Of a DNA stretch of 64,000 nt, positions 8,651 through 53,909 are shown in pieces. The notes beneath the pieces are model-generated. The model was not told the origin of the DNA. It did no database searches and was given only the letters and a program-made list of their open reading frames with translations. The translations under genes and the position numbers were made by a program. Location of the stretch: positions 1,201 to 65,200 of the forward strand of contig CAMTWQ010000015.1 of the NCBI GenBank assembly GCA_947085465.1, given 5' to 3'. This stretch comes from an uncultured Alphaproteobacteria bacterium (lineage in GTDB: Bacteria > Pseudomonadota > Alphaproteobacteria > UBA11222). Position 1 is the first letter of the stretch. Every line of letters begins with the position of its first letter.

Positions 8651-8710
8651 TAGAGCAGCCCGCGATTATGTTCGAGCCTCATGGCTCGAACATAATGCAG
8701 ATTGCTCTAG
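8651..8710. repeat. hairpin repeat that combines an A-type left end with a B-type core and right end
   Basis: The sequence is tagagcagcccgcgattatgttcgagcctcatggctcgaacataatgcagattgctctag. Its core hairpin ttatgttcgagcc/ggctcgaacataa matches the units at 41799-41861 and 45582-45640. Confidence 0.8.
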
Positions 8711-8813
8711 TGATGTCACTTGCCGCTACCCCCACCCCTGTATAAATTAGCGCGAGGCGCGCTGCAGCGTTGCGCCTGCGGCGCGTAATACAGTAACAGG
8801 AAGAGGCTGAGGC

Positions 8814-10010
8814 ATGAGCGATCTTGAACAATTCCGCGCGGAAACCCGCACTTGGCTTGAGGCTAACTGCCCGCCCTCCATGCGTACGCCGCCTAACGAT
8901 GAAGAAACCTGCTGGGGCGGCAGGAATGCGGTTTACAAAAATCCTGAGACAAAGCTGTGGCTGGACCGCATGGCCTCGCGTGGCTGGACCGCGCCTGCCT
9001 GGCCAAAGGAGTATGGCGGCGGCGGCCTTGACAAGGCGCAGAACCAAGTGTTGATGCAGGAACTGGGGCGTATCCGCGCCCGCTCGCCATTGTCAAGCTT
9101 TGGCATATGGATGCTTGGCCCAGCCCTGCTGGAATTCGCCAGCGAGCAACAAAAGCGCCATTATCTGCCGCAAATCGTGCGCGGCGAAATCCGCTGGTGC
9201 CAAGGCTATTCCGAACCAGGCGCCGGATCAGACCTGGCGGGCTTGCAGACCAAGGCCGAGGACATGGGCGATCATTATCTTGTCAACGGCTCGAAAATCT
9301 GGACTTCGTATGGCAATTATGCGGACTGGATTTTCTGCCTGGTGCGCACCGATGCCAAAGCGCCAAAGCACAAGGGCATCAGCTTCCTGTTGTTCGATAT
9401 GGCGGCGCCCGGCGCTTCGACCCGTCCCATTAAATTGATCAGTGGCGCGTCGGTGTTTACCCAAACCTTTTTCGAAAATGTGAAAGTGCCAAAGGATCAA
9501 TTGGTCGGCACGCTGAATGATGGCTGGACCATCGCCAAGGCGTTACTGCAACACGAGCGCAACATGATCGGCGGCATGGGCGGCGCCAATATACCCGGCG
9601 GCAGCGGCCAGCGTTCTCCCTCTACCGCCGCAAAACGATATTCCGGCGAGATTGACGGGCGGATCGCTGATCCGGTGCTGCGCCTGGACATCGCCAAACA
9701 CAATATGAATTCGCGGGCCTTTGGCGTTACCGGCCAGCGCATGACCGATGAACTGAAGGCCGGCGCGCCGCCGGGCCCCGCATCCTCGATGTTCAAATAT
9801 TACGGCACCGAGCAGAACAAGCGCAAATACGAGTTGCTATTGCAAGCCATGGGCACCCAGGCCCTGGGCTGGGAAGGCGGCGAATTTCAGGAACACGAGT
9901 TGGCCATCACGCGTGAATGGCTGCGCACCAAAGGCAACTCGATCGAGCGCGGCACCTCCGAAGTGCAGCTCAACATCATCGCTAAAAACGTATTGCGGCT
10001 GCCCGATTAG
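8814..10010 (+). CDS. acyl-CoA dehydrogenase family protein
   Basis: The protein is 398 aa with WCQGYSEPGAGSDLAGL and a C-terminal GTSEVQLNIIAK pattern. Confidence 0.8.
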   Translation: MSDLEQFRAETRTWLEANCPPSMRTPPNDEETCWGGRNAVYKNPETKLWLDRMASRGWTAPAWPKEYGGGGLDKAQNQVLMQELGRIRARSPLSSFGIWMLGPALLEFASEQQKRHYLPQIVRGEIRWCQGYSEPGAGSDLAGLQTKAEDMGDHYLVNGSKIWTSYGNYADWIFCLVRTDAKAPKHKGISFLLFDMAAPGASTRPIKLISGASVFTQTFFENVKVPKDQLVGTLNDGWTIAKALLQHERNMIGGMGGANIPGGSGQRSPSTAAKRYSGEIDGRIADPVLRLDIAKHNMNSRAFGVTGQRMTDELKAGAPPGPASSMFKYYGTEQNKRKYELLLQAMGTQALGWEGGEFQEHELAITREWLRTKGNSIERGTSEVQLNIIAKNVLRLPD

Positions 10011-10027
10011 GGCCGGGGGAAAATTCA

Positions 10028-11167
10028 ATGGCATTAGTACTGAACGAGGATCAAGTCCTGCTGAAAGACGCGGCGCGCGCGTTTATTCAGGATAAATCGC
10101 CGATTGCAGGGTTTCGCAAATTGCGCGATACGAATGATGCCAGCGGCTTTGACCGTAAATTATGGAAAGAAATGGCGGCGCTTGGCTGGGCCGGTATTAT
10201 CATTCCAGAGGAATTTGGCGGCTCTGGCTTTGGCTATGTCGGCCTTGGGGTAGTGCTGGAGGAGGCTGGCCGTACCTTGCTTGCTTCACCGCTTGTCTCC
10301 ACTGCCTTGATCGGCGCCAGCGCCGTGCTGCGGGGCGGCAATGCTGTGCAGAAAAAAGAAATACTGCCGGCCATCGCCACGGGTGATTGGCTGCTGGCGC
10401 TGGCGCTTGAAGAAGGCCCGCGTCACGCGCCCTATGCGATTACAACAAAAGCGGAAAAGGCTGGTGATGGCTACACGCTTAATGGCAAAAAAACTTTCGT
10501 GCTCGATGGGCATGTGGCGGATCAACTGATTGTAGTTGCGCGGACCTCTTGCAAAACTGGTGATCGCGATGGCCTGACATTGTTTCTGGTTGAGCCAACC
10601 ACGCCCGGCGTTAAGATAACCCGAACGATCATGGCGGATAGCCGCAACGCCGCGAATATTGAATTTTCCGGCGTGAAACTTGCCGCCGATGCCGTGCTTG
10701 GCGGTGTTGATCAGGGGGCTGACATTCTTGATCCGGTGCTGGACCGGGCGCGCATCGCGTTGAGCGCGGAGATGCTTGGATGTATCAGGGAATCATTCGA
10801 GCGCACGATTGAATATCTGAAAACCCGGCAGCAGTTCGGTGTGCTGATTGGCTCCTTCCAGGCCCTGAAACACCGCGCGGCGGAAATGTTTTGTGAAATT
10901 GAATTGTCCATATCGGTTGTGCTTGATGCGCTCATCGCCATCGATGAGAATCGCAATGACGTGCCGCAAATGGCGAGCCTTGCCAAAGCGCGGCTGAACG
11001 ACACGTTTTTCCTGGTTAGTAACGAAGCCTTGCAGATGCATGGCGGCATTGGCATGACCGATGAATTTGACATCGGGCTATTTATGAAGCGCGCCCGAGT
11101 CGCGCAGGCCAGTTTCGGCGATACGGTGTTTCACCGTGATCGTTACGCGAGCCTTGAAGGGTATTGA
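10028..11167 (+). CDS. acyl-CoA dehydrogenase family protein (partner of the preceding gene)
   Basis: The protein is 379 aa with QQFGVLIGSFQALKHRAAEM and ALQMHGGIGMTDEF motifs. It lies 18 nt after the upstream ACAD gene. Confidence 0.8.
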   Translation: MALVLNEDQVLLKDAARAFIQDKSPIAGFRKLRDTNDASGFDRKLWKEMAALGWAGIIIPEEFGGSGFGYVGLGVVLEEAGRTLLASPLVSTALIGASAVLRGGNAVQKKEILPAIATGDWLLALALEEGPRHAPYAITTKAEKAGDGYTLNGKKTFVLDGHVADQLIVVARTSCKTGDRDGLTLFLVEPTTPGVKITRTIMADSRNAANIEFSGVKLAADAVLGGVDQGADILDPVLDRARIALSAEMLGCIRESFERTIEYLKTRQQFGVLIGSFQALKHRAAEMFCEIELSISVVLDALIAIDENRNDVPQMASLAKARLNDTFFLVSNEALQMHGGIGMTDEFDIGLFMKRARVAQASFGDTVFHRDRYASLEGY

Positions 11168-11199
11168 CGGCGCATTGAATATAATTTAACACCCACTTA

Positions 11200-11410
11200 A
11201 GCTTTAGGTGTCCGTTGTGCGCAAGCGCAGCGGATGAAACGGGAAGCCGGTGCGTCTTTTGAAGCTTTCACGAGATAAACCCGGCACTGCCCCCGCAACG
11301 GTAAGCGAGTAAAGACGCCGCAGTACGCCACTGTGCATAGCATGGGAAGGCGCGGCGCCGGGGAATTTCCCCACTCGCGAGTCCGGAGACCGGCCTGAAG
11401 CCTATCGGAC
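11200..11410 (+). promoter_or_regulatory. cobalamin (B12) riboswitch
   Basis: The conserved core is present: gaaacgggaagccggtg (11236-11252), ccggcactgcccccgcaacggtaa (11281-11304) and gccactg...gggaaggc. A B12-box-like gagtccggagaccggcc lies at about 11379-11396. The element is directly 5' of btuB. Boundaries are approximate. Confidence 0.85.
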
Positions 11411-11527
11411 GGCATGCGGAGGGCAATGCTGCGGTACAGGCAGGCATTCGCCTTGTTCCTGTCGCGCATTTTTCTCCACCGCCATATTGCAATCTTAAAG
11501 CGCGCGGGTGTGCGCCAAGGAGAAACC

Positions 11528-13366
11528 ATGTCTTATCGTTGGATCTTGCCGGCGCTGATTTTGCTTGCGTCATCTGCTTCTATTGCAGCCGAAACAGTAA
11601 AAGAAAACCCGCTGGTGATTGTGGTGACGCCAACGCGAACGGCGAGGACGGCCGATGAGAGCCTGACGCCGGTCACGGTCATTACCCGTGCGGATATCGA
11701 GCATAAACAAGCGCAATCGACGCCTGAAATTCTTCGCGGCATTCCGGGCCTTACTCTGGCCAATAATGGCGGCCCTGGTAAAATCAGCTCGGTGTTTTTG
11801 CGCGGCACGAATTCTGATCATGTGCTGGTGCTGGTGGATGGGATCAAGCTTGGCTCGGCAACAGCTGGAACCACGGCGTTCGAGCATATTCCAGTGGAGC
11901 AGATCGAGCGCATCGAAGTGGTGCGCGGGCCACGCTCGTCGCTGTATGGCTCCGAAGCGATCGGCGGCGTGATCCAGATTTTCACCCGCAAGGGCGGCGG
12001 AAAATTCACCCCCTCGTTCAGCGTCACCGGCGGCAGTTATGAAACCGGACAGGCAACGGCGGGCGTCAGCGGCGGCGGCGATCACGCCTGGTATAATTTC
12101 AACGCCAGCGGCAGCGACACACAGGGGTTTAACTCTTGTGACGGACGGCCCGCGCCATTTGCCGGATGCGGCGCATTTGAGCCCGACGATGATGGCTATC
12201 GCACGGTTTCCGGCAATGCGCGCGGCGGGTATCGATTTGATAATGGGGCCGAGCTTGACGCCCATTGGCTGCGCGCCAAAGGCAAAAACTTTTTCGATGG
12301 TTTTTTCAACGAATCAAAAACCGTGCAACAGGTGATCGGCGGCGGCGCGAAGTTTTCGCCGGTGAAAATCTGGAACGTCACGGTGCTCGGCGGGCGCAGT
12401 AATGACAAACTGGACAGTTTCAATAACGGCGCGTTCCTGACCCGCTTTGACACCAAACGCGACAATGTTTCGGTGCAGAATGATTTTACCATGGCGCCGC
12501 GCCATGTGGTGACGCTCGGCGGCGACTATCAGAAAGACCGCATTGATGTCATCACCTTTGCGCCATTCCCCGTTACCTCACGCGGCAACAAGGCGCTGTT
12601 CGCGCAATATCAGGCAGGTTTCGGGCGGTATGATTTCGAGTTGAGCGCGCGTGGTGATGACAATGAACAATTTGGTAATTACGCCACCGGCAGCGCGGCG
12701 TGGGGAATGAATATAAGTGATGGATTGCGCGCCATAGCGTCATATGGAACCGCATTCAAGGCGCCGACATTTAACGATCTGTATTTTCCGTTCTCCGGCA
12801 ATCCCGCGCTTGATCCAGAAACATCCCGCAGCGCCGAAATCGGTTTGCGCAGCGGGCATCCGCTAGGCCCGTGGGCGGTCAATCTGTTTGAAACGCACAT
12901 TGATGATCTGATCGCCTCCACCGCGCCATTATTTCTGCGCACGAATATCAATTCAGCCCGCATTCGCGGCCTGGAACTGGAAACCAGCGCCAGGATCGAG
13001 GATTGGCGGGCCAATGCGACGCTGAGCCTGCTTGATCCGGAAAACCGCTCCGATGGGCCTAATCGCGGCAACCTGCTGCCCCGGCGCGCGCGGCAGTCCT
13101 TGCAGGTTGATCTGGACTATGACATTACCCGCCTATCCTCGGTTGGTATCAGCGTGCTGGGAGAAGGATCGCGTTATGACAATTTGGCGAACACCCAGAA
13201 GATGGGCCGTTACGCCACCGTCGATCTGCGGGCCGGACATCGGATCGCTAAAAACTGGCTGTTACAGGGCAAGGCCGTTAATCTGCTGGACGCGGATTAT
13301 GAAACAGTGGATTTCTTCAATCCGGCTGGCCGTAGCTTGTTTCTTACGCTACGGTATGAGCACTGA
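11528..13366 (+). CDS. btuB: TonB-dependent vitamin B12 outer-membrane receptor
   Basis: The start is ATG 11528, preceded by aaggaga. It has a signal peptide, the TonB box PLVIVVTPTR, plug motifs (IEVVRGPRSSLYGSEAIGGVIQIFT), and the riboswitch upstream. Confidence 0.85.
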   Translation: MSYRWILPALILLASSASIAAETVKENPLVIVVTPTRTARTADESLTPVTVITRADIEHKQAQSTPEILRGIPGLTLANNGGPGKISSVFLRGTNSDHVLVLVDGIKLGSATAGTTAFEHIPVEQIERIEVVRGPRSSLYGSEAIGGVIQIFTRKGGGKFTPSFSVTGGSYETGQATAGVSGGGDHAWYNFNASGSDTQGFNSCDGRPAPFAGCGAFEPDDDGYRTVSGNARGGYRFDNGAELDAHWLRAKGKNFFDGFFNESKTVQQVIGGGAKFSPVKIWNVTVLGGRSNDKLDSFNNGAFLTRFDTKRDNVSVQNDFTMAPRHVVTLGGDYQKDRIDVITFAPFPVTSRGNKALFAQYQAGFGRYDFELSARGDDNEQFGNYATGSAAWGMNISDGLRAIASYGTAFKAPTFNDLYFPFSGNPALDPETSRSAEIGLRSGHPLGPWAVNLFETHIDDLIASTAPLFLRTNINSARIRGLELETSARIEDWRANATLSLLDPENRSDGPNRGNLLPRRARQSLQVDLDYDITRLSSVGISVLGEGSRYDNLANTQKMGRYATVDLRAGHRIAKNWLLQGKAVNLLDADYETVDFFNPAGRSLFLTLRYEH

Positions 13367-13392
13367 TTTATAGACGAGAGAGAACAAAGCGC

Positions 13393-13992
13393 ATGCTCGA
13401 AATCCGGCAAACATTCAGTTCACCGCAAGCCATCCTGCTCTGGGTGCTTGCCGTGGTAATGGTGGCGACACGGTATTTCCATTTTGGCGCGCCGCCATTG
13501 TTTCTGCCGGACGCCTCGCTGGCGATATTCTTTCTCGCCGGGCTATATATGCGCCGCGCGATTGTTTTTCCCGCGCTATTGATCGCTGCGGGCGTGATTG
13601 ATTATCTCGCCATCAATGTGGGCGGGGTGAGTGACTGGTGTTTTTCGCCCGCCTACTGGTTCCTGATCCCCACCTATGCGGGCCTGTGGTTTGGCGGGCG
13701 GTATTGCGCGGCAAACCATGCGCTTTCATTGCAATCCCTGTTGCGGCTGGGAACGGTGCTGTTCGTTGCAACCAGCGCTGCGTTTGTGATTTCAAACGGC
13801 AGCTTCTATCTGTTCTCGGACCGCTATCCGGAGATGAGTTGGGCTGAATACGCCTTGGCCGTGACCAAATATTATGCGCCGTACATGGCCAGCGCCTTCA
13901 TCTATACGGGCGTGGCGCTGATGGTTGAGCGAGCGCTTGCTCAGACAAAACAAAAAGGAATCATGCAATGGGACGGGTTTCAGGGAAAGTAG
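13393..13992 (+). CDS. small six-TM membrane protein, candidate BtuM-type cobalamin transporter
   Basis: The protein is 199 aa with six hydrophobic segments and lies 26 nt after btuB in the same riboswitch-controlled unit. A His at aa 30 (RYFHFG) and a Cys at aa 83 (SDWCFSP) sit near the positions I recall for BtuM. Confidence 0.45.
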   Translation: MLEIRQTFSSPQAILLWVLAVVMVATRYFHFGAPPLFLPDASLAIFFLAGLYMRRAIVFPALLIAAGVIDYLAINVGGVSDWCFSPAYWFLIPTYAGLWFGGRYCAANHALSLQSLLRLGTVLFVATSAAFVISNGSFYLFSDRYPEMSWAEYALAVTKYYAPYMASAFIYTGVALMVERALAQTKQKGIMQWDGFQGK

Positions 13993-14753
13993 CGCTGGTT
14001 ACCGGCGGCGGTTCGGGCATCGGCAAAGGCAGCGCCGAGCTGCTGGCGCGCGAAGGCGCCAAAGTGGTGGTGAGTGACATTGTGGCCGCCGATGCAAAGG
14101 CGGTTGCCGACGGCATTAACAAGGCCGGCGGCGTGGCCATGTCCCTGCATCATGACGTGACCGACGAGGCGCGCTGGATCGAAGTCATGGCCGAAATAAA
14201 AAAGGCTTATGGCGGGCTGCATATTCTGTTTAACAACGCCGGTATCGCGCTTGGTGGCATGACATGGGATCAATCACTGGAGGATTGGCGCAAGCAAACG
14301 GCGGTCAATCTGGACGGCGTGTTTCTCGGCACCAAGCACGGCATTCCGTTGCTGCGCGACAGCGGCGGCGGATCAATCATCATCACCTCATCAATTGCCG
14401 GGCTGCAAGGCTCGCCAGGCCTGTCGGGCTATTGCGCCACCAAGGGCGGCGTGCGCCTGTACGCCAAGGCGGTCGCCATGGAATGCGCCCGCGCAGGCTT
14501 TAACATTCGCGTCAATACGGTGCATCCCGGCGTGATTGAGACGCCGATCTGGACCAAAATTCCCGGCAATGTGTTTGGCGGCAGTCGGGGCAATGCGATT
14601 GACCCAAACGCATTCGCCACCGCTACGGCGCCCCTGAAACGGGCTGGTCAGCCGCTGGATATCGCCAATGGCGTGCTGTTCCTCGCCAGTGACGAGTCGG
14701 CCTATATGACCGGCTCGGAATTGGTGATCGACGGCGGCATCGTCGCGGGATAG
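13968..14753 (+). CDS. SDR family oxidoreductase
   Basis: It carries GKVALVTGGGSGIGKG, NNAG and YCATKGG motifs. Confidence 0.8.
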   Translation: MGRVSGKVALVTGGGSGIGKGSAELLAREGAKVVVSDIVAADAKAVADGINKAGGVAMSLHHDVTDEARWIEVMAEIKKAYGGLHILFNNAGIALGGMTWDQSLEDWRKQTAVNLDGVFLGTKHGIPLLRDSGGGSIIITSSIAGLQGSPGLSGYCATKGGVRLYAKAVAMECARAGFNIRVNTVHPGVIETPIWTKIPGNVFGGSRGNAIDPNAFATATAPLKRAGQPLDIANGVLFLASDESAYMTGSELVIDGGIVAG

Positions 14754-14765
14754 GGCGGATGTTTA

Positions 14766-15545
14766 TCAGGCGTTCTTGATGGTCAGGCCGCCGTCAACCG
14801 GCAGCACCGCGCCGGTTACATAGGATGCGGCCGGCAGGCAGAGACTCAAGGTCATGTGCGCCACTTCCTCGGGAATGGCGTAGCGCATCACCGGCACCCG
14901 GCGGCGGGTGTATTTATCCTTGTTCTCCTCGGGAATCCGCTCGGTCAAGCCGGTGCGCACAGCACCCGGGCAAATGCAATTGACGGTGATTCCCTCCTTG
15001 CCGAACTCCACCGCCAATGAACGGGTGACGCCGATAAGCCCGGTTTTCGCCGCCGCGTATCCGACGCCCCCAGGGGATGCGCCTAACGCCTCGGTGGAAG
15101 CAATATTCACAACCCGCGCCGCATCGGATTTGCGCAAATAAGGTAGCGCCGCACGCACAATCCGCGCCGGGCCGGTCAGCATCACGTTAAGCGCCAGCGC
15201 CCAGGTGTCCTCGAACCGCTTTGATTCTGTCCGCCCGACAGTCGCCAAACCAGCATTGTTGACGATAATATCGAGCCGTCCGAACGCTTCAGCCACTTCT
15301 TTGACAACCCGCTCCACGGCCTCGCGCTTGCCCACGTCAAACACCCAGCCGCGCGCGGTTCCGCCCGCATCGGTGATTTCCTTGACCACAACGTCAACCG
15401 CCTCTTGCTTTAGGTCGGTTACCGCCACCAGCGCGCCCTCGTCGGCGAACAGATGCGCCGTGGCGCGGCCCATGCCGCTGGCGGCCCCCGTGACCAGAAC
15501 GGCTCTACCGGCTACAGAACGGCTTAGTTTAGATAGTCTTGGCAT
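14766..15545 (-). CDS. SDR family oxidoreductase
   Basis: It carries VLVTGAASGMGRA, NNAG and YAAAKTG motifs. Confidence 0.8.
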   Translation of the reverse strand: MPRLSKLSRSVAGRAVLVTGAASGMGRATAHLFADEGALVAVTDLKQEAVDVVVKEITDAGGTARGWVFDVGKREAVERVVKEVAEAFGRLDIIVNNAGLATVGRTESKRFEDTWALALNVMLTGPARIVRAALPYLRKSDAARVVNIASTEALGASPGGVGYAAAKTGLIGVTRSLAVEFGKEGITVNCICPGAVRTGLTERIPEENKDKYTRRRVPVMRYAIPEEVAHMTLSLCLPAASYVTGAVLPVDGGLTIKNA

Positions 15546-15659
15546 GATCTCCTCCCCTCATATTATCTATGGTTTCTACGCGCAGCATATTTCGCTCACT
15601 CACCACATGCCAGAAAATATCGAGCGGCGGGCAAGGAGCAATGCAGAAAAATCCATGAT

Positions 15660-38036: not shown

Positions 38037-38137
38037 TGCTGATTTTCCCTCCGTAAATTGATCTCTCTGTTTTAGAGCACTTTGTTTTCTGATCGAATCG
38101 CAATGACGATGTTGCTTCAATCCGTTCACAAAACGCC

Positions 38138-38551
38138 TTAGACACCGAGCAGGGGGACGCCGATCACGCTGCTTGCGGCGCGCAATTCCTGGTCGAGGGT
38201 CGCGAGAGGCAGACCGCGCCGCTGCGCCAGCTCAAGATAGGCGGCGTCATAGAGCGTGAGCCGGTAGCGATCAGCCAGACGCAGGGTGGTTGACCATGCG
38301 AAAACATCCGTATCCGGATCGGTAGTGATGTTGAGCAAAGCAAGGTCAGTCAGCGCTTCATCGCGGAATTCCGCATCAACACGTCCGCGCCTGACAGCCA
38401 TCAGCAGGCTGTTAGCTATCTCCAAGCGCCAGATTGCTGGTACCCAGGCGCGTCCAGTGATTACGCGGTCAAAGACTTGCTGGACCGGCAAAGTCATCTC
38501 ACCGGTATATATCCAAGCCAGCGAGATCGAGCTATCAACAACGATGGTCAC
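38138..38551 (-). CDS. vapC: PIN-domain toxin (VapC family)
   Basis: The N-terminus is MTIVVDSSISLAW, LTLYDAAYLELAQ follows later, and the gene overlaps the antitoxin stop by 4 nt. Confidence 0.75.
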   Translation of the reverse strand: MTIVVDSSISLAWIYTGEMTLPVQQVFDRVITGRAWVPAIWRLEIANSLLMAVRRGRVDAEFRDEALTDLALLNITTDPDTDVFAWSTTLRLADRYRLTLYDAAYLELAQRRGLPLATLDQELRAASSVIGVPLLGV

Positions 38552-41147: not shown

Positions 41148-41699
41148 CTATTCCACGGTGATCGTAATCGGCGCGGAATACACCGGAGTCTTGTGCGGGA
41201 TATGATTGTGGTCGCCCAGCAGCAATTGCAATGTGTGCCTGCCAGGAGCCAACTCCAGCATTGCTTCGGTCTGCCCGCCGCCGAAATGCAGGTGTTGCGG
41301 ATCTTTCGCGATAGCTTCATTGAGCGTTTCACCGGCAGGTAACGGCGCATCCACCAGCAAATGGTGATGGCCGGTATTTTCCTTCTCAACGCCTGCGGGC
41401 GCAACCCCCATGCCGCGCATGCCAAACACCACCTGCACGGGCGACTTGAGCTTGGCGCCATCCGCCGGGCTGATGAAATACACCTTGGCGCCATCCGGGA
41501 CTGGGGTCTCGCCCGCCTGTACAGGCGAAATCAGCCACAACACGACGGCTGCAACGCCGCTTAGACCATTTCCTGATCGGATTGAATCAATCCGATCAGG
41601 AAATGGTCTAACACATTCAAATAGAGCCTTTCTTATCCGGTCAGGTTGGTTCAACCTGACCGGGAAAGGCTCTAGCAGACTGCTCACATCTTTTTTCAC
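41148..41699 (-). CDS. DUF4399-domain secreted protein whose signal-peptide region is interrupted by a repeat element
   Basis: The start is GTG 41699 with GGAG 8 nt upstream. The GHHHLLVD motif is present. The N-terminus reads MKKDVSSL, then a 37-38 aa repeat-encoded segment, then SGVAAVVLWLISPVQA|GETP. Confidence 0.65.
   Translation of the reverse strand: MKKDVSSLLEPFPVRLNQPDRIRKALFECVRPFPDRIDSIRSGNGLSGVAAVVLWLISPVQAGETPVPDGAKVYFISPADGAKLKSPVQVVFGMRGMGVAPAGVEKENTGHHHLLVDAPLPAGETLNEAIAKDPQHLHFGGGQTEAMLELAPGRHTLQLLLGDHNHIPHKTPVYSAPITITVE
41562..41675. repeat. composite hairpin repeat (C unit, linker, D unit)
   Basis: The C unit (41562-41610) is a perfect 24-bp-arm palindrome, tagaccatttcctgatcggattga-a-tcaatccgatcaggaaatggtcta. 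The linker is acacattcaaa. The D unit (41622-41675) is tagagcctttcttatccggtcaggttg..caacctgaccgggaaaggctctag. Confidence 0.85.
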
Positions 41700-41722
41700 T
41701 GCATATTCTCCATGTTTTCCAT

Positions 41723-41861
41723 TAGAGCAGCCCGCATTTAAGTGGAGTCACTTTGTGCCCCCAGTTAAATGCGGAAAGCTGCTCTAACACATTAAAATCT
41801 AGAGCAATTTTCTTTATTAAGTTCGAGCCTCATGGCTCGAACTTAATGCAGATTGCTCTAG
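41723..41861. repeat. composite hairpin repeat (A unit, linker, B unit)
   Basis: The A unit (41723-41786) is tagagcagcccgcatttaagtgg...ccagttaaatgcggaaagctgctcta. The linker is acacattaaaat. The B unit (41799-41861) is ctagagcaattttctttattaagttcgagcctcatggctcgaacttaatgcagattgctctag. Confidence 0.85.
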
Positions 41862-42500
41862 CGCCAGCGCTGTGCGAAACCCGGTTTCAGGACTGCTCCA
41901 AATAGGTATATCAATATCTTTGCATAAGGCGATAGCTGGCTCCATCGAGGCCTGCGCCAGCAGGATCAATTCGGTGGTCATCGATACGCCGCGCAATCCA
42001 AGCGCGACTGTGCGATAATAGGCGTCCAGGTCGCCGCGCTCAAACAACGGCCAGGCGCTGAGGAATAAATGATCGGTCACGATCACGCTTGGCTGCTTTA
42101 AATATTCGGCGGATGAGCGCACCAGGCTAGCAGTGGCGCTAACGGCCGTAGCCAGCGTGCCGCACACCGCAATATGCCTTGTGTGCAACACGGCCTGATC
42201 CGCCATTGGGCGATCGATGCGCAACACCGGAATCGGCGCATCCGCATCAAACGCTTCCGCCACCGGCCCAAGCGTCGAGCAGGTGCAAATGAGCACATGC
42301 GCTTCTGGCGTCAAGGCTCCCGTCATTGCTTCAAACGCTGCTTCCTGCACCAGACCGGTAATGCCCCCTTGCGCCACCGCCAGGCTGAGCAAATCCTCAC
42401 GCACCACATGACGCACGCCAATCTCGGGGGCAATCCGGTCGCGCAATGCGTCAAATGTGGCGACGTGAACATCTGAGGTGTGCAGAAAAACGATCGTCAT
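41817..42500 (-). CDS. Asp/Glu/hydantoin-racemase-superfamily protein (arylmalonate-decarboxylase-like)
   Basis: The protein is 227 aa with MTIVFLHTSDVH and ICTCSTLGP motifs. The last 15 codons (LEQSALSSSHEART) and the stop codon lie inside repeat unit B. Confidence 0.45.
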   Translation of the reverse strand: MTIVFLHTSDVHVATFDALRDRIAPEIGVRHVVREDLLSLAVAQGGITGLVQEAAFEAMTGALTPEAHVLICTCSTLGPVAEAFDADAPIPVLRIDRPMADQAVLHTRHIAVCGTLATAVSATASLVRSSAEYLKQPSVIVTDHLFLSAWPLFERGDLDAYYRTVALGLRGVSMTTELILLAQASMEPAIALCKDIDIPIWSSPETGFRTALALEQSALSSSHEART

Positions 42501-45554: not shown

Positions 45555-45581
45555 CGAATGATTAACTGCATTGTAGGTACA

Positions 45582-45717
45582 AGAGCAATCTGCATTAAGT
45601 TCGAGCCACGAGGCTCGAACTTAATAAAGAAAATTGCTTGATTTTAATGTGTTAGAGCAGCTTTCCGCGATTAAGTGGGGGCACGACGTGACTCCACTTA
45701 ATCGCGGGCTGCTCTAG
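45582..45717. repeat. composite hairpin repeat (B-linker-A, inverted relative to 41723-41861)
   Basis: The reverse complement aligns with 41723-41861 along its whole length, with a few substitutions and a 3-nt deletion. The linker acacattaaaat is identical. Confidence 0.85.
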
Positions 45718-45987
45718 TGGCTGCCGGCAGGGATATTCAGATGGTAATTGCCTTTGTTAAGGCGCTAGCAGGCTACTAAACCGTTGCGAAATAGTGACGA
45801 CGCCGGAAAATTAGGTGTCATCTTAGTCATAATTTCGACATGGGTGATTGATTATATGCGCGTATGGGTATTGTATCGGCGACTAAGATACATTATGCAC
45901 GAAGAAGTTATCTGGGGTGGTGGGTTTGCCACTAGGGTGAGCCAGACGCTGGTGTCCGGCGGCAGAGTGAAACAGATGGAGTTTGCG

Positions 45988-46302: not shown

Positions 46303-46316
46303 TATTTATAACAAAT

Positions 46317-46341
46317 CCCCGCTTTCATGTGGGGTTTGTTT
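46317..46341 (+). terminator. rho-independent terminator
   Basis: The stem ccccgc (46317-46322) pairs with gtgggg (46329-46334) around the loop tttcat, followed by tttgttt. It lies 14 nt after the stop codon. Confidence 0.55.
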
Positions 46342-46416
46342 GCGCTTGCCGTTTAAGAGGCTGATCAGCGGGCGACATTGCCAAGCTCTGATTGCCTAGC
46401 CCAATCCGCCAGCTCA

Positions 46417-47783: not shown

Positions 47784-47943
47784 GCTGGGTTCTCCCCTCA
47801 CTGCCGGTTAATATCACCACATATAGTGATATAACTGAAACGCTCCACAAAATAGTGTAGCCGAGAGCATTTGCTTCGTCTATGCGCCATTTCATAGCGC
47901 CGGCAAAAATCCGGGGATACAGGCAGCATCAGCCGGCGTTTAC

Positions 47944-48231
47944 TCAGGCGGAGGAGGTTTTTGCAGATCGAGGCCGTTTGGCGCGGGTTACAGCCTGCGC
48001 TTCCAGCGCCGCGATTCGGGCTTCGAGCCTGTCGTTTTCCTCGCGGGCCGCAGCCGCCATGGCCTTTACCGCCTCGAATTCATCGCGCGCCACCAAATCA
48101 AAACCGTCCAGTAACCGCTCGACGCGCTGGCGGAATAGGCCGTCCAGTTCGCCCTTCATGCCCTGGGTGGCGCCCGCGGCGTTGGAAATCAGTTTGGCCA
48201 GATCGTCAAGAAAACGGTTTTCGGTTTGCAT
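47944..48231 (-). CDS. ubiK: UbiK/YqiC-family accessory factor (coiled coil)
   Basis: The sequence begins MQTENRFLDDLAKLISNAAGATQGMKGE...VARDEFEAVKAM (ATG 48231). Confidence 0.65.
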   Translation of the reverse strand: MQTENRFLDDLAKLISNAAGATQGMKGELDGLFRQRVERLLDGFDLVARDEFEAVKAMAAAAREENDRLEARIAALEAQAVTRAKRPRSAKTSSA

Positions 48232-48314
48232 GATGCCTCGCATGGCTGCATATCTTCAGTGTTTTTACGGCCTATATTCTCCGGCTGCAAGCGCAGCTCA
48301 TATTAACCCTCCCG

Positions 48315-49133
48315 GTGATGATGCTCAGCTTTCCGCAAATCGATCCTGTCGCCCTGCAAATTGGACCGTTAGCGATCCGCTGGTATGCGCTGGCGTATCT
48401 TGGCGGGATCATGCTGGGCTGGGCCTATGCGGTATGGCTGGTGCGCGATGAAAAATTGTGGCCGCACGCCAAGCCTCCCGCCACGGCTGAGCAGGTGGGC
48501 GATTTTATCACCTGGGTCACGCTTGGCATTATTCTTGGCGGAAGACTCGGTTATGCGCTGTTTTATAATACCAGTTATTATCTAGGCAATCCGGCTGAAA
48601 TTTTGAAAGTCTGGCAGGGCGGCATGTCGTTTCATGGCGGATTGCTTGGGGTTATTTTTGCGATTCTGCTGTTTGCAAGAAAGCATAAATTACCGTTGGG
48701 AAGTTTTGCCGATCTCATCGCCTGTGTGGTTCCGATTGGATTACTATTTGGGCGAATCGCCAACTTCATCAATGGGGAATTGTGGGGCCGGGTGAGTGAT
48801 GCGCCTATTGCGATGGTGTTCCCTGGCGGCGGGCCGTTGCCACGCCATCCAAGTCAGCTTTATGAAGCGGCATTGGAGGGGGCATTCCTGCTAGTGTTGA
48901 TCTATACGCTTATCCGCGCCACAAATGCGCTCAAGCGGACGTGGCTGGTGAACGGCGTTTTTGTCGCGGGGTATGGCGTGGCGCGCACTTTCGTTGAGTT
49001 TTTTCGCGAACCCGACGCGCAGATTGGTTTTCTCTCCCATGGCTTGACCATGGGCATGCTGCTTTCCCTGCCAATGATCATCACAGGGGCCTGCATGATC
49101 GTCATGACGCTTCGCCGTGCGGCAGCCCCGTGA
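48315..49133 (+). CDS. lgt: prolipoprotein diacylglyceryl transferase
   Basis: It has [39 protein letters not shown] and HPSQLYEA. Confidence 0.9.
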
Positions 49134-50224
49134 ATTGGCGCAATAATCCGGTTAGCGAACATTTGCGCCGTTTGATTGTCGCGCAGGGACCTGTTTCGCT
49201 CGCCAGCTATATGCACTTGGCGCTTAGCTATCCCTCGCACGGCTATTATATGCGCCAGGACCCCATTGGCGCCGGGGGCGGCTTTATTACCGCTCCGGAA
49301 ATCAGCCAGATATTTGGCGAGCTGATTGGCCTGTGGTGCGTGCAATGCTGGAACGATATGGGCAAGCCGGCGCCATTTGCGCTAGTTGAGTTGGGGCCAG
49401 GACGCGGCACATTAATGGTGGACGCCTTGCGCGCGGCCAAGGTAATGCCGGATTTTTTGATGGCGGCGCAGGTGCATTTAGTTGAAACCAGCCCGTCACT
49501 ACAGGCAAAACAGCAAGCGGCGCTGGGCGACCTGCCGTGCTGGCATCAGAGCGTGGACTCGCTCCCGGAACTGCCCACCCTGATTATAGCCAATGAATTT
49601 TTTGACGCGCTTCCGATCCGTCAGTTTCAATGCATGGGCAAAGCATGGCGCGAGCGGATGATTAGTATTAATTCGGTGACGGATGAATTTTGTTTTTGCC
49701 TTGCCCCGGAACCATTGCTTGACGTTTCCGTTCTGCCGCAGGAATTGCGCGGCGGACAACAGGGCGCCATTGCAGAAATTAGCCCGACGGGCCAGGCCAT
49801 CCTCAGCGGATTGGCGCAGCGCATTATGCAATATGGCGGCGCGGCGCTGATCATTGACTATGGCTATTTCCCAAGTGCGGCGGGTGATACGTTGCAGGCG
49901 GTGCGCGCGCACGGCATGTGCGATCCGCTTGCGGATCCAGGAAGCGCCGACATCACCGCGCATGTGGACTTTGCGCAGTTGGCACAGACGGCGATTCAGG
50001 CCGGCGCGCGCGTTCATGGCCCAGTTCCCCAGGAGGCATTTCTGGCGCAGTTAGGAATTACCGCGCGCGCAGAACGCTTATCGCGCGAGGCAGACGCGGA
50101 TCTGCGCACCCAGATTGCGGCGGATGTTGCGCGCTTGACGTCGCCAGACGCCATGGGCAGCCTGTTCAAAGTCATGGCGATCAACCATCCGGCAATGTCA
50201 ACGCCAGCCGGCTTTGAAAGTTGA
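49130..50224 (+). CDS. class I SAM-dependent methyltransferase, NDUFAF7/MidA (DUF185) family
   Basis: It has [18 protein letters not shown] and [12 protein letters not shown]. Confidence 0.75.
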
Positions 50225-50227
50225 TCC

Positions 50228-51007
50228 ATGCTCAAATTAGAACGCCTCACCGCCCAACGCCTGCTGCAAAGCGCCCATGTGCGGCATGGATTCTTCACGC
50301 GCCAGGGTGGTTTCTCAACCGGCATTTATGACTCTTTGAACTGCGGCTTGGGCTCAAAGGATGATCCCGAAAATGTGCGGCGTAACCGCGCCAGGGTTAG
50401 CGCTGCATTTGGCGCAAAGGAAATTATCCTTGCCGGCGTGCGGCAGGAGCATGGTTCAGGGGTGCATGTGATCAACGATCATGAACAGGCGGCGCTCCGC
50501 CCAATGGCGGATGGGCTTGTCACCAGCCTGCCGGGTATTGGCTTGTCAATCCTTGCAGCGGATTGCGCGCCGGTGCTGTTTGCTGATCCGCAGGCGCGCA
50601 TCATCGGCGCAGCGCATGCAGGCTGGAAAGGCGCGCTGGGGGGGATTTGTGAGGCGGTTGTAGAGGAAATGGTAAAGCTGGGCGCCACGCCTGGCGCCAT
50701 AGAAACCGCCATCGGCCCTTGCATCTCACGGGACGCCTATGAGGTCGGGGCGGATTTTGAGCGCAATTTCTTAGAGCGTGACTCTGCGAGCGGGTGCTTT
50801 TTTACCCCCTCGGCAAAGCCGGACAAGCGTCAATTCGCGCTTGGTTCTTATGTGAGTGAGCGTATATCACGCGCAGGATTGGATCCTGCCGAAAACCTTA
50901 ACTTATGCACTTACGGAGATGCACAGCGGTTTTTTAGTTTCCGCCGCGCCACCCATCTGGGGGAGAAAGATTATGGCCGCGCGATTTCCGTTATCCTTCT
51001 GGCATAG
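50228..51007 (+). CDS. pgeF: peptidoglycan editing factor PgeF (YfiH/laccase-domain family)
   Basis: It has ADCAPVLF, AHAGWKGALGG and GPCI motifs. Confidence 0.8.
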   Translation: MLKLERLTAQRLLQSAHVRHGFFTRQGGFSTGIYDSLNCGLGSKDDPENVRRNRARVSAAFGAKEIILAGVRQEHGSGVHVINDHEQAALRPMADGLVTSLPGIGLSILAADCAPVLFADPQARIIGAAHAGWKGALGGICEAVVEEMVKLGATPGAIETAIGPCISRDAYEVGADFERNFLERDSASGCFFTPSAKPDKRQFALGSYVSERISRAGLDPAENLNLCTYGDAQRFFSFRRATHLGEKDYGRAISVILLA

Positions 51008-51883
51008 ATGCAAAATATAGTGGGCGCATATTTCCTGTATTTCATCCGTCTACTGATTGTTTCCGCAATTCCTGGGCTAGCGGGGTGCGTCACGTCGTAT
51101 ACGAATCCGGTGATGCCCAAGGAACCGGAGAGGTTATCCCAAATCACTGCCCATACCGGGGTGCGTGTTGGTCCTATTGACGGCGTTCCGGCGGAGTTTG
51201 GCCACGTGCTCGCGCAAGCCGTCAGCGCGGCGTTGCGCGAGTTGGATATCCCGGCAATTGCCGCGCCCGGCGTGATGCCTGGGGCGCATGGGCTGGCGGG
51301 AAAAGCGGTTCAGGAGCCAAATGCGTTAAGCGTGACATGGACGCTCACTGGCCCGGATGAAAAGCCCGTGGCGGAATATACCTTGCGTGAAACTGTCCAT
51401 CTCGCGGCCCTGGCGGATGATCCGGCTCTGAAGGCGTTGGCGGAACGCGCGGCGCTGGCCATCGTTCCATATTTTAACACGGCCGGCGGCAATGCTTTGG
51501 ACGCGACCACTGTATGGGTGCGCGCTATTTCAGGCGCCCCAGGCGATGGGGATGTTGTCCTGCCCCAGGCGCTGCGCCGGGCCCTCACCAGCGCCGGGGT
51601 CAACGTGATTAAAACCGATGATCCAAAAGCGGTGCAGATTGAGGGACGGGTACAGGTGAGCGATCTCAACGCCTCGGCGCAGCTGCTCAAATTGTCATGG
51701 CGGGTGCTGGGGCCCGGCGGTGAGGAAATTGGTGTGATTGATCAGGAAAACCAGGTGGCGCCTGGCCAAATCGACACCCATTGGGGTGAGATCGCCTATC
51801 TGGCTGCCGATGGGGCCAAGGACGGCATCATTGATCTGCTCAGTGAGTACCGGGCGCACGCGAATCCCTCACCGCCGCCGTGA
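51008..51883 (+). CDS. hypothetical lipoprotein
   Basis: It has the lipobox IPGLAGC. I recognise no family motif. Confidence 0.5.
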   Translation: MQNIVGAYFLYFIRLLIVSAIPGLAGCVTSYTNPVMPKEPERLSQITAHTGVRVGPIDGVPAEFGHVLAQAVSAALRELDIPAIAAPGVMPGAHGLAGKAVQEPNALSVTWTLTGPDEKPVAEYTLRETVHLAALADDPALKALAERAALAIVPYFNTAGGNALDATTVWVRAISGAPGDGDVVLPQALRRALTSAGVNVIKTDDPKAVQIEGRVQVSDLNASAQLLKLSWRVLGPGGEEIGVIDQENQVAPGQIDTHWGEIAYLAADGAKDGIIDLLSEYRAHANPSPPP

Positions 51884-52002
51884 ACCCTAGAGCAGCCCTA
51901 GTTTTGCTCAAATCCGGTTTTGCGCTGTGCTAAGCGTTTACAAATGCGCCCCCGGCAAGTTAAAAGCAGGGCCATCATCATCCGGCAAGAATGGGCGTGC
52001 GC

Positions 52003-52935
52003 ATGAAGCTGCTAGCGGGCAATAGTAATAAACCCCTGGCCAAGGCCGTCGCGGATTTTTTGCACCTGCCCTTGACCATGGCCAGCGTGCGGCGGTTCGC
52101 AGACATGGAAGTGTTTGTGGAAATTCAGGAAAATGTGCGCGGCGAAGACGTGTTCATTATTCAATCCACCTCGTTTCCGGCGAACGACCATATGATGGAA
52201 TTGCTGATTTGCATCGATGCGCTGCGGCGTGCTTCCGCCAGGCGCATTACGGCGGTGATTCCGTATTTCGGCTATGCGCGCCAGGACCGCAAATCAGGGC
52301 CGCGCACCCCGATTTCCGCCAAGCTGGTCGCCAATCTAATTACCACCGCAGGCGCCAACCGGGTGCTGACGGTTGATCTGCATGCGGGACAAATTCAGGG
52401 CTTTTTTGATATCCCCACAGATAACCTGTTCGCCGCCCCTGTTTTGGTGCGTGACATCAAGCAGCAATTTGGCAACGCCAGCCTAGTGATGGTGTCGCCG
52501 GATGTGGGCGGCGTGGTGCGCGCCCGGGCGCTGGCGCGGCGGCTGGACGCGGATCTGGCGATTGTTGACAAACGCCGGGAGCGGGCAGGCGAATCCGAAG
52601 TCATGAACATTATTGGCGAAGTGGAGGGGCGCACCTGCATTTTGATCGACGATATGGCCGATTCGGCGGGCACCCTGTGTAACGCGGCGCAGGCCCTGAA
52701 AAACGCTGGCGCGCTTGGGGTTTACGCCTACGCCACGCATGGGGTTCTGTCGGGTGGTGCAGCAGACCGGGTGGCGGCCTCGCAGATCGAAAGCCTGGTG
52801 ATCACCGATACAATAGCGCCAACCGAAGCGGTGCTGGGCGCCGCCAATATCCGCTGCCTATCGATTGTGCCGCTGATTGGGGAGGCGATTCAGCGTATTT
52901 CCGAGGAAAAATCGGTCTCGACCTTATTTGATTAG
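52003..52935 (+). CDS. prs: ribose-phosphate pyrophosphokinase
   Basis: The start is MKLLAGNSN, and [14 protein letters not shown] and [10 protein letters not shown] are present. Confidence 0.95.
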
Positions 52936-53085
52936 TCTGAGCGGGTTGCCAAGCTGGCCTGCCTGCGCTACAACCCGGCCCCAGAACGCCGCCCTTTTTC
53001 GTGCTCCACGGGTACGGAATTAACCCATAGATATCAACCGTGCGCGCAAGGGATTACCCGGCGGCACGATCAGCGAGCAAACAGC

Positions 53086-53733
53086 ATGGCCGAGATCGAA
53101 ACAATCGTTGCGCAAAAACGCGACCGGGCGGGCAAGGGCGGAGCCCGCGCCACGCGGCGTGAGGGGAGAGTTCCTGGCGTGATTTACGGCGGTAAAGAGC
53201 CGCCAACCATGATCGCGCTTGATTCCCCGATGTTGATCAAGGTGCTAAAGCGCGGCGGCTTTATGAGCCATCAGTTCATGATTGATCTGGGCGAAGGCTC
53301 GACGGTGCGTGTCATACCCCGCGATCTGCAACTTGATGTCGTGCGGGATTTTCCGCTGCATGTGGATTTTCTGCGCCTGGTCAAGGGCTCCAGCATCCAC
53401 GTTCAGATACCGGTGCGCTTCACAGGTGATGCAGTATCGCCCGGCATCAAACGTGGCGGCGTCCTGAATATTGTGCGTCACGAAGTGGAACTGGTGTGCC
53501 CCATTGATTCGATTCCGGAATTCTTGATGTGCGACATTAGTGATCTCGATATCAATGGCAGTGTGCATATCTCGGCGCTTGTGCTGCCTGAAGGGGTGCA
53601 TCCCGCCATCATGGATCGCGATTTCACCATCGCCACGCTTGCCCCGCCGACGGTTGCCGAAGTAGAGACGCCAGTGGTTCCGGCAGCAGTGGCGGCTCCA
53701 GCAACTCCTGCTGCGGGCGGCGAGAAAAAGTAG
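53086..53733 (+). CDS. rplY: 50S ribosomal protein L25 / general stress protein Ctc
   Basis: It has GKGGARATRREGRVPGVIYG and a C-terminal Ala/Pro tail. Confidence 0.9.
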   Translation: MAEIETIVAQKRDRAGKGGARATRREGRVPGVIYGGKEPPTMIALDSPMLIKVLKRGGFMSHQFMIDLGEGSTVRVIPRDLQLDVVRDFPLHVDFLRLVKGSSIHVQIPVRFTGDAVSPGIKRGGVLNIVRHEVELVCPIDSIPEFLMCDISDLDINGSVHISALVLPEGVHPAIMDRDFTIATLAPPTVAEVETPVVPAAVAAPATPAAGGEKK

Positions 53734-53759
53734 GCTTGTATCTTTCCACCGAACCTTCC

Positions 53760-53909
53760 TAGACCATTTCCTGATTGGATTGAATCAATCCGTTCAGGAT
53801 AAAAATGGCCTAATACATTAATTTAGAGCCTTTCTTATCCTGTCAGGTTGGTCTCGCCACGGCGAAGCCGTAGGCGTAGCCGGGTCAACCTGACAGGGAA
53901 AGGCTCTGG
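53760..53909. repeat. composite hairpin repeat (degenerate C unit, linker, D unit with a loop insertion)
   Basis: The C-like unit is tagaccatttcctgattggattgaatcaatccgttcagg...ggccta. The linker is atacattaatt. The D-like unit tagagcctttcttatcctgtcaggttg...caacctgacagggaaaggctctgg has about 34 nt of nested hairpin in its loop. Confidence 0.8.

Follow-up and report, generated by a model that had tools for sequence, protein, structure and literature searches.

The window, by which we mean the whole 64-kb stretch of DNA that was analysed, contains five main loci of hairpin repeats and one short remnant (Table 1). All six were read directly from the sequence in window coordinates, and all are present as the first-pass annotation had described them. 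The repeats comprise four unit types, A to D, arranged as A-B or C-D pairs with a conserved linker, and this arrangement was borne out by HMMs as well as by the sequence. Two genes in the window, one encoding a DUF4399 protein and one belonging to the Asp/Glu/hydantoin racemase family, are remodelled by insertions. The region 38072-38145 had been listed as a possible degenerate C-like copy; it found no support, having no unit HMM match at E ≤ 0.01 and a fold like that of shuffled sequences (z = -0.44).

Table 1. Hairpin repeats and remodelled genes in the window (window coordinates)
Feature	Position	Strand	Description
Solo chimeric unit	8651..8709	+	A-type left tip (TAGAGCAGCCCGCGATTA), B-type core and right arm
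DUF4399 gene	41148..41699	-	Read through the CD element; Pfam PF14347, E = 6e-35
CD pair	41562..41674	+	C 41562-41610; 11-nt linker ACACATTCAAA 41611-41621; D 41622-41674
AB pair	41723..41860	+	A 41723-41786; 13-nt linker ACACATTAAAATC 41787-41799; B 41800-41860
Asp/Glu/hydantoin racemase-family gene	41817..42500	-	Last 8 codons replaced by 14 from unit B of the AB pair
AB pair, inverted	45581..45716	-	Direct sequence and unit HMM matches
Remnant CTAGAGCAGCCCTAG	51887..51901	+	11-nt A tip, then CTAG
CD-long pair	53760..53908	+	C 53760-53812; 11-nt linker; D 53824-53908

The building block is a near-palindrome of 49-64 bp with a small loop. Every unit starts with TAGA(G/C)C and ends with G(G/C)TCTA; the tip (TA-GAGC or TA-GACC) is invariant, and the mid-stem is variable yet complementary. 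In the usual mobile form, two blocks are joined by a constant linker (A-13 nt-B or C-11 nt-D). Lengths run from 49 to 150 bp for a single unit or pair, and larger composite arrays also occur. The spacing of units is quantised at 11, 13 or -2, the last value (20 cases) corresponding to a TA common to the neighbours. The outer arms of pairs are clean inverted repeats, and the inner arms on the linker side carry 3-5-nt bulges. Outer arms also match within pairs: C-left and D-right agree at 17 of 23 positions, and TAGAGCA and ATTAAGT are common to A-left and B-right.

The C unit of the shorter CD pair is a perfect palindrome (25 of 25 arm positions complementary). Two inverted repeats (I1 and I2) match the inverted AB pair with 41719-41859; its A unit is of the GCGATTAAG subtype, and the tips of its B unit have decayed (AAGAGC, GCTTG). 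The D unit of the long CD pair has a 31-nt loop insert, a right TA decayed to TG, and a stem with a mirrored change from G:C to T:A. The chimeric unit, flanked as T-TA...TA-G, matches the B HMM at 8661-8708 (E = 5.5e-13) and folds at -36.9 kcal/mol (z = -6.4). Folded as RNA, the pairs in the window reach -75 to -80 kcal/mol; relative to shuffled sequences this corresponds to z-scores of -10.8 to -14.3. The A-end remnant was read where it had been annotated; an exact 11-mer has a chance expectation of about 0.03 in 128 kb of two-strand sequence, and the remnant is a truncated copy or else the scar of an excision. Rfam covariance models gave no match to the hairpin units in the window. The sole Rfam match there is a cobalamin riboswitch at 11189-11412.

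The shorter CD pair adds 111 nt (37 codons) in frame to the DUF4399 gene, within the part that encodes the signal peptide; as it stands, the gene encodes a 37-residue insert after MKKDVSSLL. Deletion of the 111 nt, with one TA kept, yields VKKDVSSLLSGVAAVVLWLISPVQA..., which is collinear with the signal peptides of orthologs and leaves the DUF4399 frame intact. The neighbouring AB pair interrupts the racemase-family gene within a CTA codon, at its TA, 9 codons ahead of the stop; the last 8 codons have been replaced by 14 from unit B, in which a TAA now serves as the stop. Deletion of 136 nt, again with one TA kept, yields an end (...TALALMENMENMQ and stop) equal in length to the ends of orthologs (...AALALIDYEEKTA and stop), and the gene then overlaps the next one again (TGA/GTG). 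Deleting 138 or 134 nt at this AB pair did not restore the gene end. Six relatives were compared at the site between the racemase-family and DUF4399 genes, and all of them lack both elements. These filled and empty sites, compared between genera rather than strains, cover two window loci; at both, only the model of a 2-bp TA duplication restores an ortholog-like gene, in agreement with the original reading of the repeats as TA-duplicating MITEs.

Genome-wide distribution and target sites

Further copies, anticipated by the first-pass annotation, are abundant. HMM searches of the whole genome, a 2.3-Mb MAG that is 69% complete, found 349 units (A 85, B 74, C 92, D 98) in 186 arrays, all counts being lower bounds; CD pairs (56) and AB pairs (44) are the commonest arrays. 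Among 12 further genomes from the same taxonomic family, copies turned up in 8, and they were found in none of 18 genomes of other taxonomic families; AB pairs occupy other sites in four relatives (G001, G007, G009 and G012). Flanking sequences of dispersed copies are unrelated, and mean pairwise identity among copies is 95.5% for AB and 94.5% for CD. The hairpin repeats are a real family of small non-coding mobile elements that insert at TA, with about 190 loci.

Mapping of insertion sites placed 179 of the 186 arrays in intergenic DNA; in-frame insertion is rare, with one verified case. The family makes up about 0.9% of the genome, and about 14% of all CTAG sites belong to it. At least 38 ORFs end at a stop codon provided by an element, gene ends have been remodelled, and many contig ends are assembly breaks caused by the repeats. 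For this lineage, a model of the repeat family is required in annotation and binning.

On either side of the elements, the outer TA adjoins a C in 64% and a T in 31% of cases, which gives the pattern Y-TA...TA-R, and the outer flanks of genome-wide copies have no conservation beyond that base. Together with the TA common to neighbouring units, this upholds the TA bracketing seen in the window. At C14:15605 and C14:8044, the position occupied by an element coincides exactly with the point at which orthologs terminate in TAG or C-TA-A. A model of a 4-bp target duplication was also considered; more than half of the copies contradict it. The 31-nt D-loop insert of the long CD pair recurs in three CD copies at unrelated loci (C47, C44 and C12); because four CD copies at unrelated loci have this private insert, the CD pair was copied as one unit.

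The repeats are probably non-autonomous, cut-and-paste MITEs that insert at Y-TA-R with duplication of the TA, are linked to an IS630-type element, and have their arms kept complementary at the DNA level. Insertion would take place at the TA within Y-TA-R, and that TA would be duplicated. Copies would survive at harmless sites, that is, in intergenic DNA, at stop codons, and occasionally at gene ends or in-frame positions. At a stop codon, the TA and the G of the element would rebuild TAG.

Mirrored substitutions in the arms

Both mirrored differences reported earlier from the window were confirmed, namely GCATTTAAG/CTTAAATGC versus GCGATTAAG/CTTAATCGC in unit A and CCGGTCAGG/CCTGACCGG versus CCTGTCAGG/CCTGACAGG in unit D, and the mirroring proved significant across many copies. 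The edges of minimum spanning trees carry 18 mirrored events against 1.7 expected, a number reached in none of 2000 simulations, and shuffling of columns gave mirrored counts as high as those observed in 0-2 of 1000 trials. The mirrored changes are confined to positions 11-24, behind the invariant tips, with none at positions 4-10 of units A and C. Among variants present in at least four copies 7 of 14 are mirrored, compared with 20 of 121 rarer variants (p = 0.008).

The stem had been proposed to be maintained by selection on an RNA or DNA hairpin or by templated repair. The mirrored excess stands, and it points to a DNA-level, strand-symmetric cause of complementarity and not to RNA function, which narrows the question without settling it. 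The sign expected of RNA selection did not appear: mismatches on the mRNA-sense strand comprise 39 A·C and 36 G·T, with no G·U bias. Given this balance and the position of the mirrored changes, DNA-level foldback pairing is favoured over a role of the transcript. One-sided changes exceed mirrored events by 206 to 18, so the stems of resident copies are not under active maintenance.

The same observations bear on structures selected by the host, either as RNA (3' stabilisers, terminators or processing sites) or as DNA (CIR-like repeats associated with CcrM methylation). The hairpins are very stable, many lie just past genes (median distance to the gene 3' end, 21 nt), and 78 of 84 C units have GANTC, a reported hallmark of CIR elements, at the loop centre. 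Against a host function, both orientations are equally frequent, the elements have no terminator-like or promoter-like consensus, and there is neither an Rfam match nor a G·U excess on the mRNA-sense strand. Insertions hit stop codons as often as the background predicts: 19% of them do so, and 17% of non-coding YTAR sites are stop codons. Further points against host selection are that GANTC, which occurs in 20 of 75 A copies, is essentially missing from B (1/65) and D (3/91), that resident copies decay on one side, and that orthologous sites in relatives are empty. We consider host-selected structures quite unlikely.

Mirrored changes could also be a mechanical by-product, if template switching or repair within the palindrome used one arm to rewrite the other and pairing were under no selection at all. 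A 4-nt bulge mirrored on both arms in two D copies is an indel beyond the reach of point mutation, every unit has perfect-palindrome versions (17-26 copies each), and hybrid units are equally mosaic on both arms (e.g. C66:1730), all of which support arm-to-arm copying. Yet bulges stay on one arm in 72-81% of copies; because they persist and one-sided mismatches far exceed mirrored ones, in-place correction of arms is rare. The enrichment of mirrored variants among those that have multiplied fits selection during propagation, and copying as the whole cause seems possible but doubtful. Under DNA-level upkeep, which we prefer, complementarity would be kept in multiplying lineages and resident copies would decay one arm at a time, with occasional arm-to-arm templated copying adding to complementarity.

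Candidate mobiliser and related repeat families

The first-pass annotation had noted no transposase in the window and suggested a genome search for one of the IS630 family with matching terminal repeats. A multicopy IS630-family insertion sequence is indeed present elsewhere in the genome, with at least five copies at contig ends and two ORFs that match NF033545 at positions 2-133 and 149-298. A 99%-identical metagenome copy of this element and two relatives have TA on both sides. An IS427-like element with TA flanks is also present, at C114. At three of the four resolved right ends of the IS630-family element, the sequence runs as GGTA-Y-TAGACC straight into a solo C unit, with a single orientation (chance estimate, 2e-12), and its right inverted repeat (IRR) agrees with the C arm at 18 of 25 positions (p = 0.003-0.004, marginal after correction for 16 comparisons). 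The match of ends extends to C only: the IS tips, TA-CCAACGG, differ from the unit tips, and no candidate parent element for units A, B and D was found in the genome. The repeat family is most abundant in the one genome of the taxonomic family where this IS630-family transposase was found; none was found in relatives with a few AB copies, in MAGs from which insertion sequences are often lost at assembly. Because it shares TA duplication, directly contacts C units and has a C-arm-like right end, the IS630-family element is the best candidate and, as judged from sequence, the likely mobiliser of the repeats.

Double-stranded DNA as short as these elements may be too stiff to bring both ends together. 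Pairing of the arms as a foldback or cruciform would juxtapose both TA-GAGC tips for the transposase, and lineages would propagate only while their arms still pair. Arm complementarity as a strict mechanical need, with a DDE transposase of the IS630 type acting only once a foldback or cruciform has aligned the tips, seems unlikely to us. If true, the covariation would be the footprint of a structure-dependent step in a class of transposons thought to need only double-stranded ends, and the same recognition would account for the constant abutment of the insertion sequence and C units.

Compensation could also arise from hairpin recognition if the repeats were REP/REPIN-type elements, moved as single-stranded hairpins by RAYT, an HUH tyrosine transposase. 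The genome has three Y1_Tnp/RAYT-like genes (NF047646 at 79.8 bits), but each is flanked on both sides by a separate repeat family that is unrelated to the units, and the 6 kb around each gene are free of A-D units. To our knowledge, REP/REPIN elements have a conserved GTAG head and no target duplication, and HUH transposition (IS200/IS605 family) yields no 2-bp duplication of the kind observed here; the heads of our units read YTAGAGC or YTAGACC, the flanks are symmetric, and two loci require the duplication. Movement by RAYT is highly improbable. The published layout of REPINs, with conserved inverted ends and a hairpin-forming, covarying spacer in which compensatory changes are frequent (Bertels and Rainey 2011, PMC3116915), is nevertheless shared, as are clusters and singlets that look like decayed remnants. 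The differences from REPINs lie in enzyme class and mechanism, TA duplication, Y-TA-R flanks and the lack of an adjoining RAYT gene.

CIR elements have GANTC at the centre of the inverted repeat and are strictly intergenic, and RIME1, one of the Rhizobium-specific intergenic mosaic elements (RIME), consists of two large palindromes. Our repeats resemble both as alphaproteobacterial intergenic repeats of 100-190 bp with large palindromes; unit C has the central GANTC, and the layout of RIME1, compared by description only, is like that of AB and CD. Set beside CIR by description, the repeats differ in their B and D units, which lack GANTC, and we know of no case in which mobility with TA duplication, supported here, has been shown for CIR. 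CIR (Caulobacter CcrM-associated intergenic repeats) are named in a review (PMC10969869); PMC2229807 is a second review in this field. Rickettsia palindromic elements (RPE) and intragenic ERIC/RU elements are palindromic repeats that can occur in frame within genes (PMC10969869, PMC2759123). The 37-codon CD insertion likewise lies in frame in a gene and adds residues, here to a signal peptide; such insertion is the rule for RPEs, in contrast to the single verified case among our 186 arrays.

RUP of Streptococcus pneumoniae is an example of a MITE derived from IS630/Tc1-mariner elements, and Correia elements of Neisseria also duplicate TA. The repeats described here are likewise short and non-coding, have terminal inverted repeats and duplicate TA; they have many copies, most of them between genes, and can change the ends of genes, and an IS630-family element resides in the same genome. 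In contrast to RUP and Correia, each block is an almost perfect palindrome, and the usual mobile form is two different palindromes and a fixed linker. They also differ from IS630-derived MITEs in that their tips depart from those of the resident insertion sequence; as compared by description, no sequence relation is apparent. Conserved tips and covarying stems, together with resident copies in decay and a candidate transposase, make the family a natural experiment on why palindromic MITEs stay symmetric. It is an uncatalogued yet ordinary example of TA-duplicating bacterial MITEs, and it leaves the general picture unchanged because compensatory changes are already known from small mobile repeats, as are the TA duplication and this class of elements.

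Loci in the window and architecture across the genome

The four near-palindromic hairpin types, A to D, form AB and CD pairs through a fixed linker. Each main hairpin locus proposed by the first-pass annotation was borne out on reading the window, as were an 11-nt A-end remnant and the perfect palindrome of unit C, whose arms at 41562-41610 are complementary at 25 of 25 positions. A possible degenerate C-like copy at 38072-38145, also listed there, was detected by none of the unit HMMs, and it folds no more stably than expected by chance. The window also contains a cobalamin riboswitch (RF00174, 119 bits) at 11189-11412 (+).

Hairpin loci of the window
Feature	Position	Basis
Single chimeric unit, A tip on B core	8651-8709	read from sequence
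CD pair	41562-41674	read from sequence
AB pair	41723-41860	read from sequence
AB pair, inverted, slightly decayed	45581-45716	read from sequence
11-nt A tip	51887-51901	present
CD pair with enlarged D loop	53760-53908	read from sequence

Iterated HMM searches of the source genome bin (2.32 Mb in 124 contigs, 57% G+C, 69% complete) identified 349 non-overlapping units (85 A, 74 B, 92 C and 98 D) grouped in 186 arrays. The arrays include 56 CD pairs, 44 AB pairs and solo units of all types; many seemingly solo A units consist of A, the linker and a variant B. About 30 arrays are composite, and many contig ends lie inside an element. The spacing of neighbouring units is quantised: CD has 11 nt (sometimes 10 or 12) and AB has 13 nt, and 20 inter-element junctions have -2 nt, that is, a common TA. 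The linkers also connect other partners (C-13-B, D-13-B and A-11-D), and chimeric units combine the tip of C with the core of D, or that of A with the core of B. The family is thus mosaic, in agreement with the modularity first noticed in the window. Unit A is related to B (TAGAGCA ... ATTAAGT in both) and unit C to D (17 of 24 arm positions). Among 12 relatives of the same taxonomic family, AB was found in eight and CD in three, and searches of 18 genomes from the class's other families yielded neither. A further family of dispersed repeats, ~65 nt long, adjoins a D unit in the relative G010 (L021:1565-1632) and is multicopy in the genome of the window, with at least 11 loci (e.g. C24:9470, C113:20404 and C92:12619).

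Target site, mobility and survival of copies

The family is TA-duplicating, non-coding and multicopy, and it moves both as units and as pairs. We analyzed the flanks of 118 arrays anchored at both ends. The base beside each outer TA is C in 64% and T in 31% of cases, symmetrically on both sides, and the target is therefore Y-TA-R; beyond this pyrimidine, no flank conservation was found at the 236 ends. A 4-bp YTAR duplication of the IS5-like kind is excluded, since the left and right flanking bases differ in more than half of the copies.

Filled and empty sites were compared for two loci of the window against six relatives. The AB pair at 41723 interrupts a CTA codon of a gene of the Asp/Glu racemase family, nine codons from the gene's end. 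Deletion of 136 nt, with one TA kept, gives the end ...TALALMENMENMQ, with the length of the ortholog ends ...AALALIDYEEKTA, and also brings back the TGA/GTG overlap of stop and start codons between this gene and the next; deletions of 138 or 134 nt do not. The reading of this site as an insertion in a TGA/TAA stop codon was ruled out by translation. The CD pair at 41562 is an in-frame insertion of exactly 111 nt (37 codons) within the signal peptide of a DUF4399 gene, and its removal yields MKKDVSSLLSGVAAVVLWLISPVQA, which is collinear with the orthologs. The region 41148-42500 (-) is a two-gene unit hit by two separate insertions: the racemase-family gene is translationally coupled to the DUF4399 gene, and AB replaces the last eight codons of the former and parts the two genes. 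On contig C14, ortholog ends (TAG, or overlapping C-TA-A stops) coincide exactly with element starts.

Four CD copies at unrelated loci, including the one at 53760, have the D loop enlarged by the same 31-nt insert, and hence the pair was copied as a single unit. A 31-33-nt module, CTCGCCACGGCGAAGCCGTAGGCGTAGCCGGG, with two GTAG motifs is located in D-unit loops (window 53838-53870, C47:41124, C44:9164 and C12:1604) and, at C58:42643, in that of a palindrome unrelated to them; perhaps the module is a tiny insert in its own right, with hairpin loops as its target. At the 53760 site itself, intergenic DNA is too diverged for a base-level comparison with the empty site, and the relatives have a different ATCAGATTGAA hairpin. 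The L25-pth spacer (window 53600-54010; loci L030, L031 and L035) contains in G001, G009 and G010 a different hairpin with 14-bp arms, TCATCAGATTGAAT...ATTCAATCTGATGA, the core of which resembles the C arm; it possibly represents an ancient insertion that has decayed, or else a family of its own. The site of the reverse comparison (filled in the relative G007, empty at window ~22330) was insufficiently collinear.

Outside long ORFs lie 179 of the 186 arrays, in tandem (62), convergent (41) or divergent (30) gene contexts and with no orientation preference. Elements are nearly missing from coding DNA despite its 8172 YTAR sites, a sign of purging. In 35 arrays (38 ends), the element supplies the TAG stop for an ORF of 100 codons or more. 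Because each end reads TA followed by G, insertion into TAA or TAG rebuilds the stop and is harmless. Special targeting of stop codons was rejected, as the observed share of arrays at a stop codon (19%) is close to the 17% expected from the share of stop codons among non-coding YTAR sites. The CTAG tetranucleotide is about five-fold under-represented genome-wide (1848 observed versus 8697 expected from base composition), and 262 of its sites (14% of all in the genome) are inside elements. An element outside the window, C14:16226-16347, is located at a synteny break; to its right are just the last ~13 codons of a gene which the relatives have in full, suggesting a rearrangement or deletion at this repeat.

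Mirrored changes in the hairpin arms

Mirrored Watson-Crick changes were counted against each unit consensus. Unit A has 45 mirrored cells of nine pair types, unit B six of three types, unit C ten of seven types, and unit D nine of eight types; of 1000 column shuffles, 0-2 attain the observed counts. So as to leave aside changes inherited within subfamilies, we used the edges of minimum spanning trees, along which there are 206 one-sided changes and 18 mirrored pair changes versus 1.7 expected. None of 2000 simulations reaches 18, so the mirrored substitutions pointed out in the first-pass annotation are significant across many copies. The copies in relatives provide further mirrored variants, one of them in the tip (TAGGGC...GCCCTA).

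In units A and C of this genome, mirrored changes occur at positions 11-24 and are absent from positions 4-10. A protein-binding sequence could not be restored by a mirrored change, and therefore it is pairing rather than sequence that is preserved at positions 11-24. RNA folding of the pairs gives -75 to -80 kcal/mol, which for both strands is lower than the energy of shuffled sequences by 11 to 14 standard deviations. Mismatches on the mRNA-sense strand are divided equally between A·C (39) and G·T (36), which together with the random orientation makes the constraint strand-symmetric and speaks against a role as RNA. Nothing within the elements was matched by consensus scans or by Rfam.

Decay in resident copies proceeds on one arm at a time. 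The share of mirrored variants is 7 of 14 among variants with at least four copies versus 20 of 121 among rarer ones (p = 0.008), and this enrichment among multiplied variants fits selection among propagating lineages. Two D copies have a 4-nt bulge mirrored on both arms; a mirrored indel arises only by arm-to-arm templating or recombination, so some mechanical copying does occur. Bulges of 3-5 nt in pairs always affect the linker-side arm and never the outer arm alone, suggesting that the pair's working ends are its outer arms.

Candidate mobilizer and relation to known elements

One element of the IS630 family is present in the genome, on contig C19. Its two ORFs match two halves of NF033545 and overlap around an A-run, a putative programmed -1 frameshift site. 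Four other contig ends repeat its final 112-141 nt, and thus the element is multicopy. Its tips, CCAACGG...CCGTTGG with TA on both sides, were established from a 99%-identical metagenome copy and two more distant relatives. Metagenome loci were used solely to define the tips and the TA duplication; 80 such loci encoding transposase relatives had no A-D unit at E<=0.1.

Of four right junctions resolved in the genome, three have the insertion sequence followed by TA-Y-TAGACC and a solo C unit, different each time, with the bulged arm always on the side of the insertion sequence; a rough chance estimate for this geometry is 2e-12. The sole left junction abuts an apparently degenerate C-like palindrome. 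Local alignment of the IS630 ends with the eight unit arms singled out one match, that of the right inverted repeat to the C arm (18 of 25 positions, p = 0.003-0.004, marginal given 16 comparisons), with p > 0.2 for A, B and D. The transposase was not found in a search of 12 same-family genomes, which also hold far fewer elements. The C19 element is the likely mobilizer, at least of C and CD. IS4/IS5-type elements at C79 and C114 have inverted repeats unrelated to the unit tips. The IS5-family (IS427-like) element at C114:11846-12790, with inverted repeats AGGATTTATCC, has T-TA...TA-G flanks, which makes it the genome's second insertion sequence that duplicates TA.

Movement of the hairpins by a RAYT, as in REP systems, was considered in view of three RAYT-like (Y1_Tnp) genes, at C90:2790-3690, C65:31600-31700 and C117:841-1224. 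However, all three sit between copies of their own repeat families, other than A-D (e.g. inverted pairs of AAAGAAATAGGGTCAGACTCGATTTAAA, with at least 15 other loci, and GGGGTCAGGTCTTGACATGACAGTTT), which removes this explanation. These genes and their repeats look like classical REPIN-RAYT systems coexisting with the TA-duplicating MITEs.

We infer that the elements are mobilized in trans by the IS630-family transposase. We further propose that, in elements so short, the duplex would be too stiff for the two ends to meet, and foldback or cruciform pairing would juxtapose the two TA|GAGC tips. Lineages would then propagate only while their arms pair, which would leave mirrored substitutions behind fixed tips.

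TA-duplicating bacterial MITEs are already known, as are in-frame palindromic inserts such as RPE and ERIC. Compensatory changes in small mobile repeats have been described for REPINs (PMC3116915) and bcr1 (PMC3184786). By their descriptions, the CIR and RIME elements of Alphaproteobacteria come closest in host range and architecture; a central GANTC site is carried, among A-D, by unit C only. The hairpin family is real and apparently uncatalogued, and belongs to an already known kind of element.
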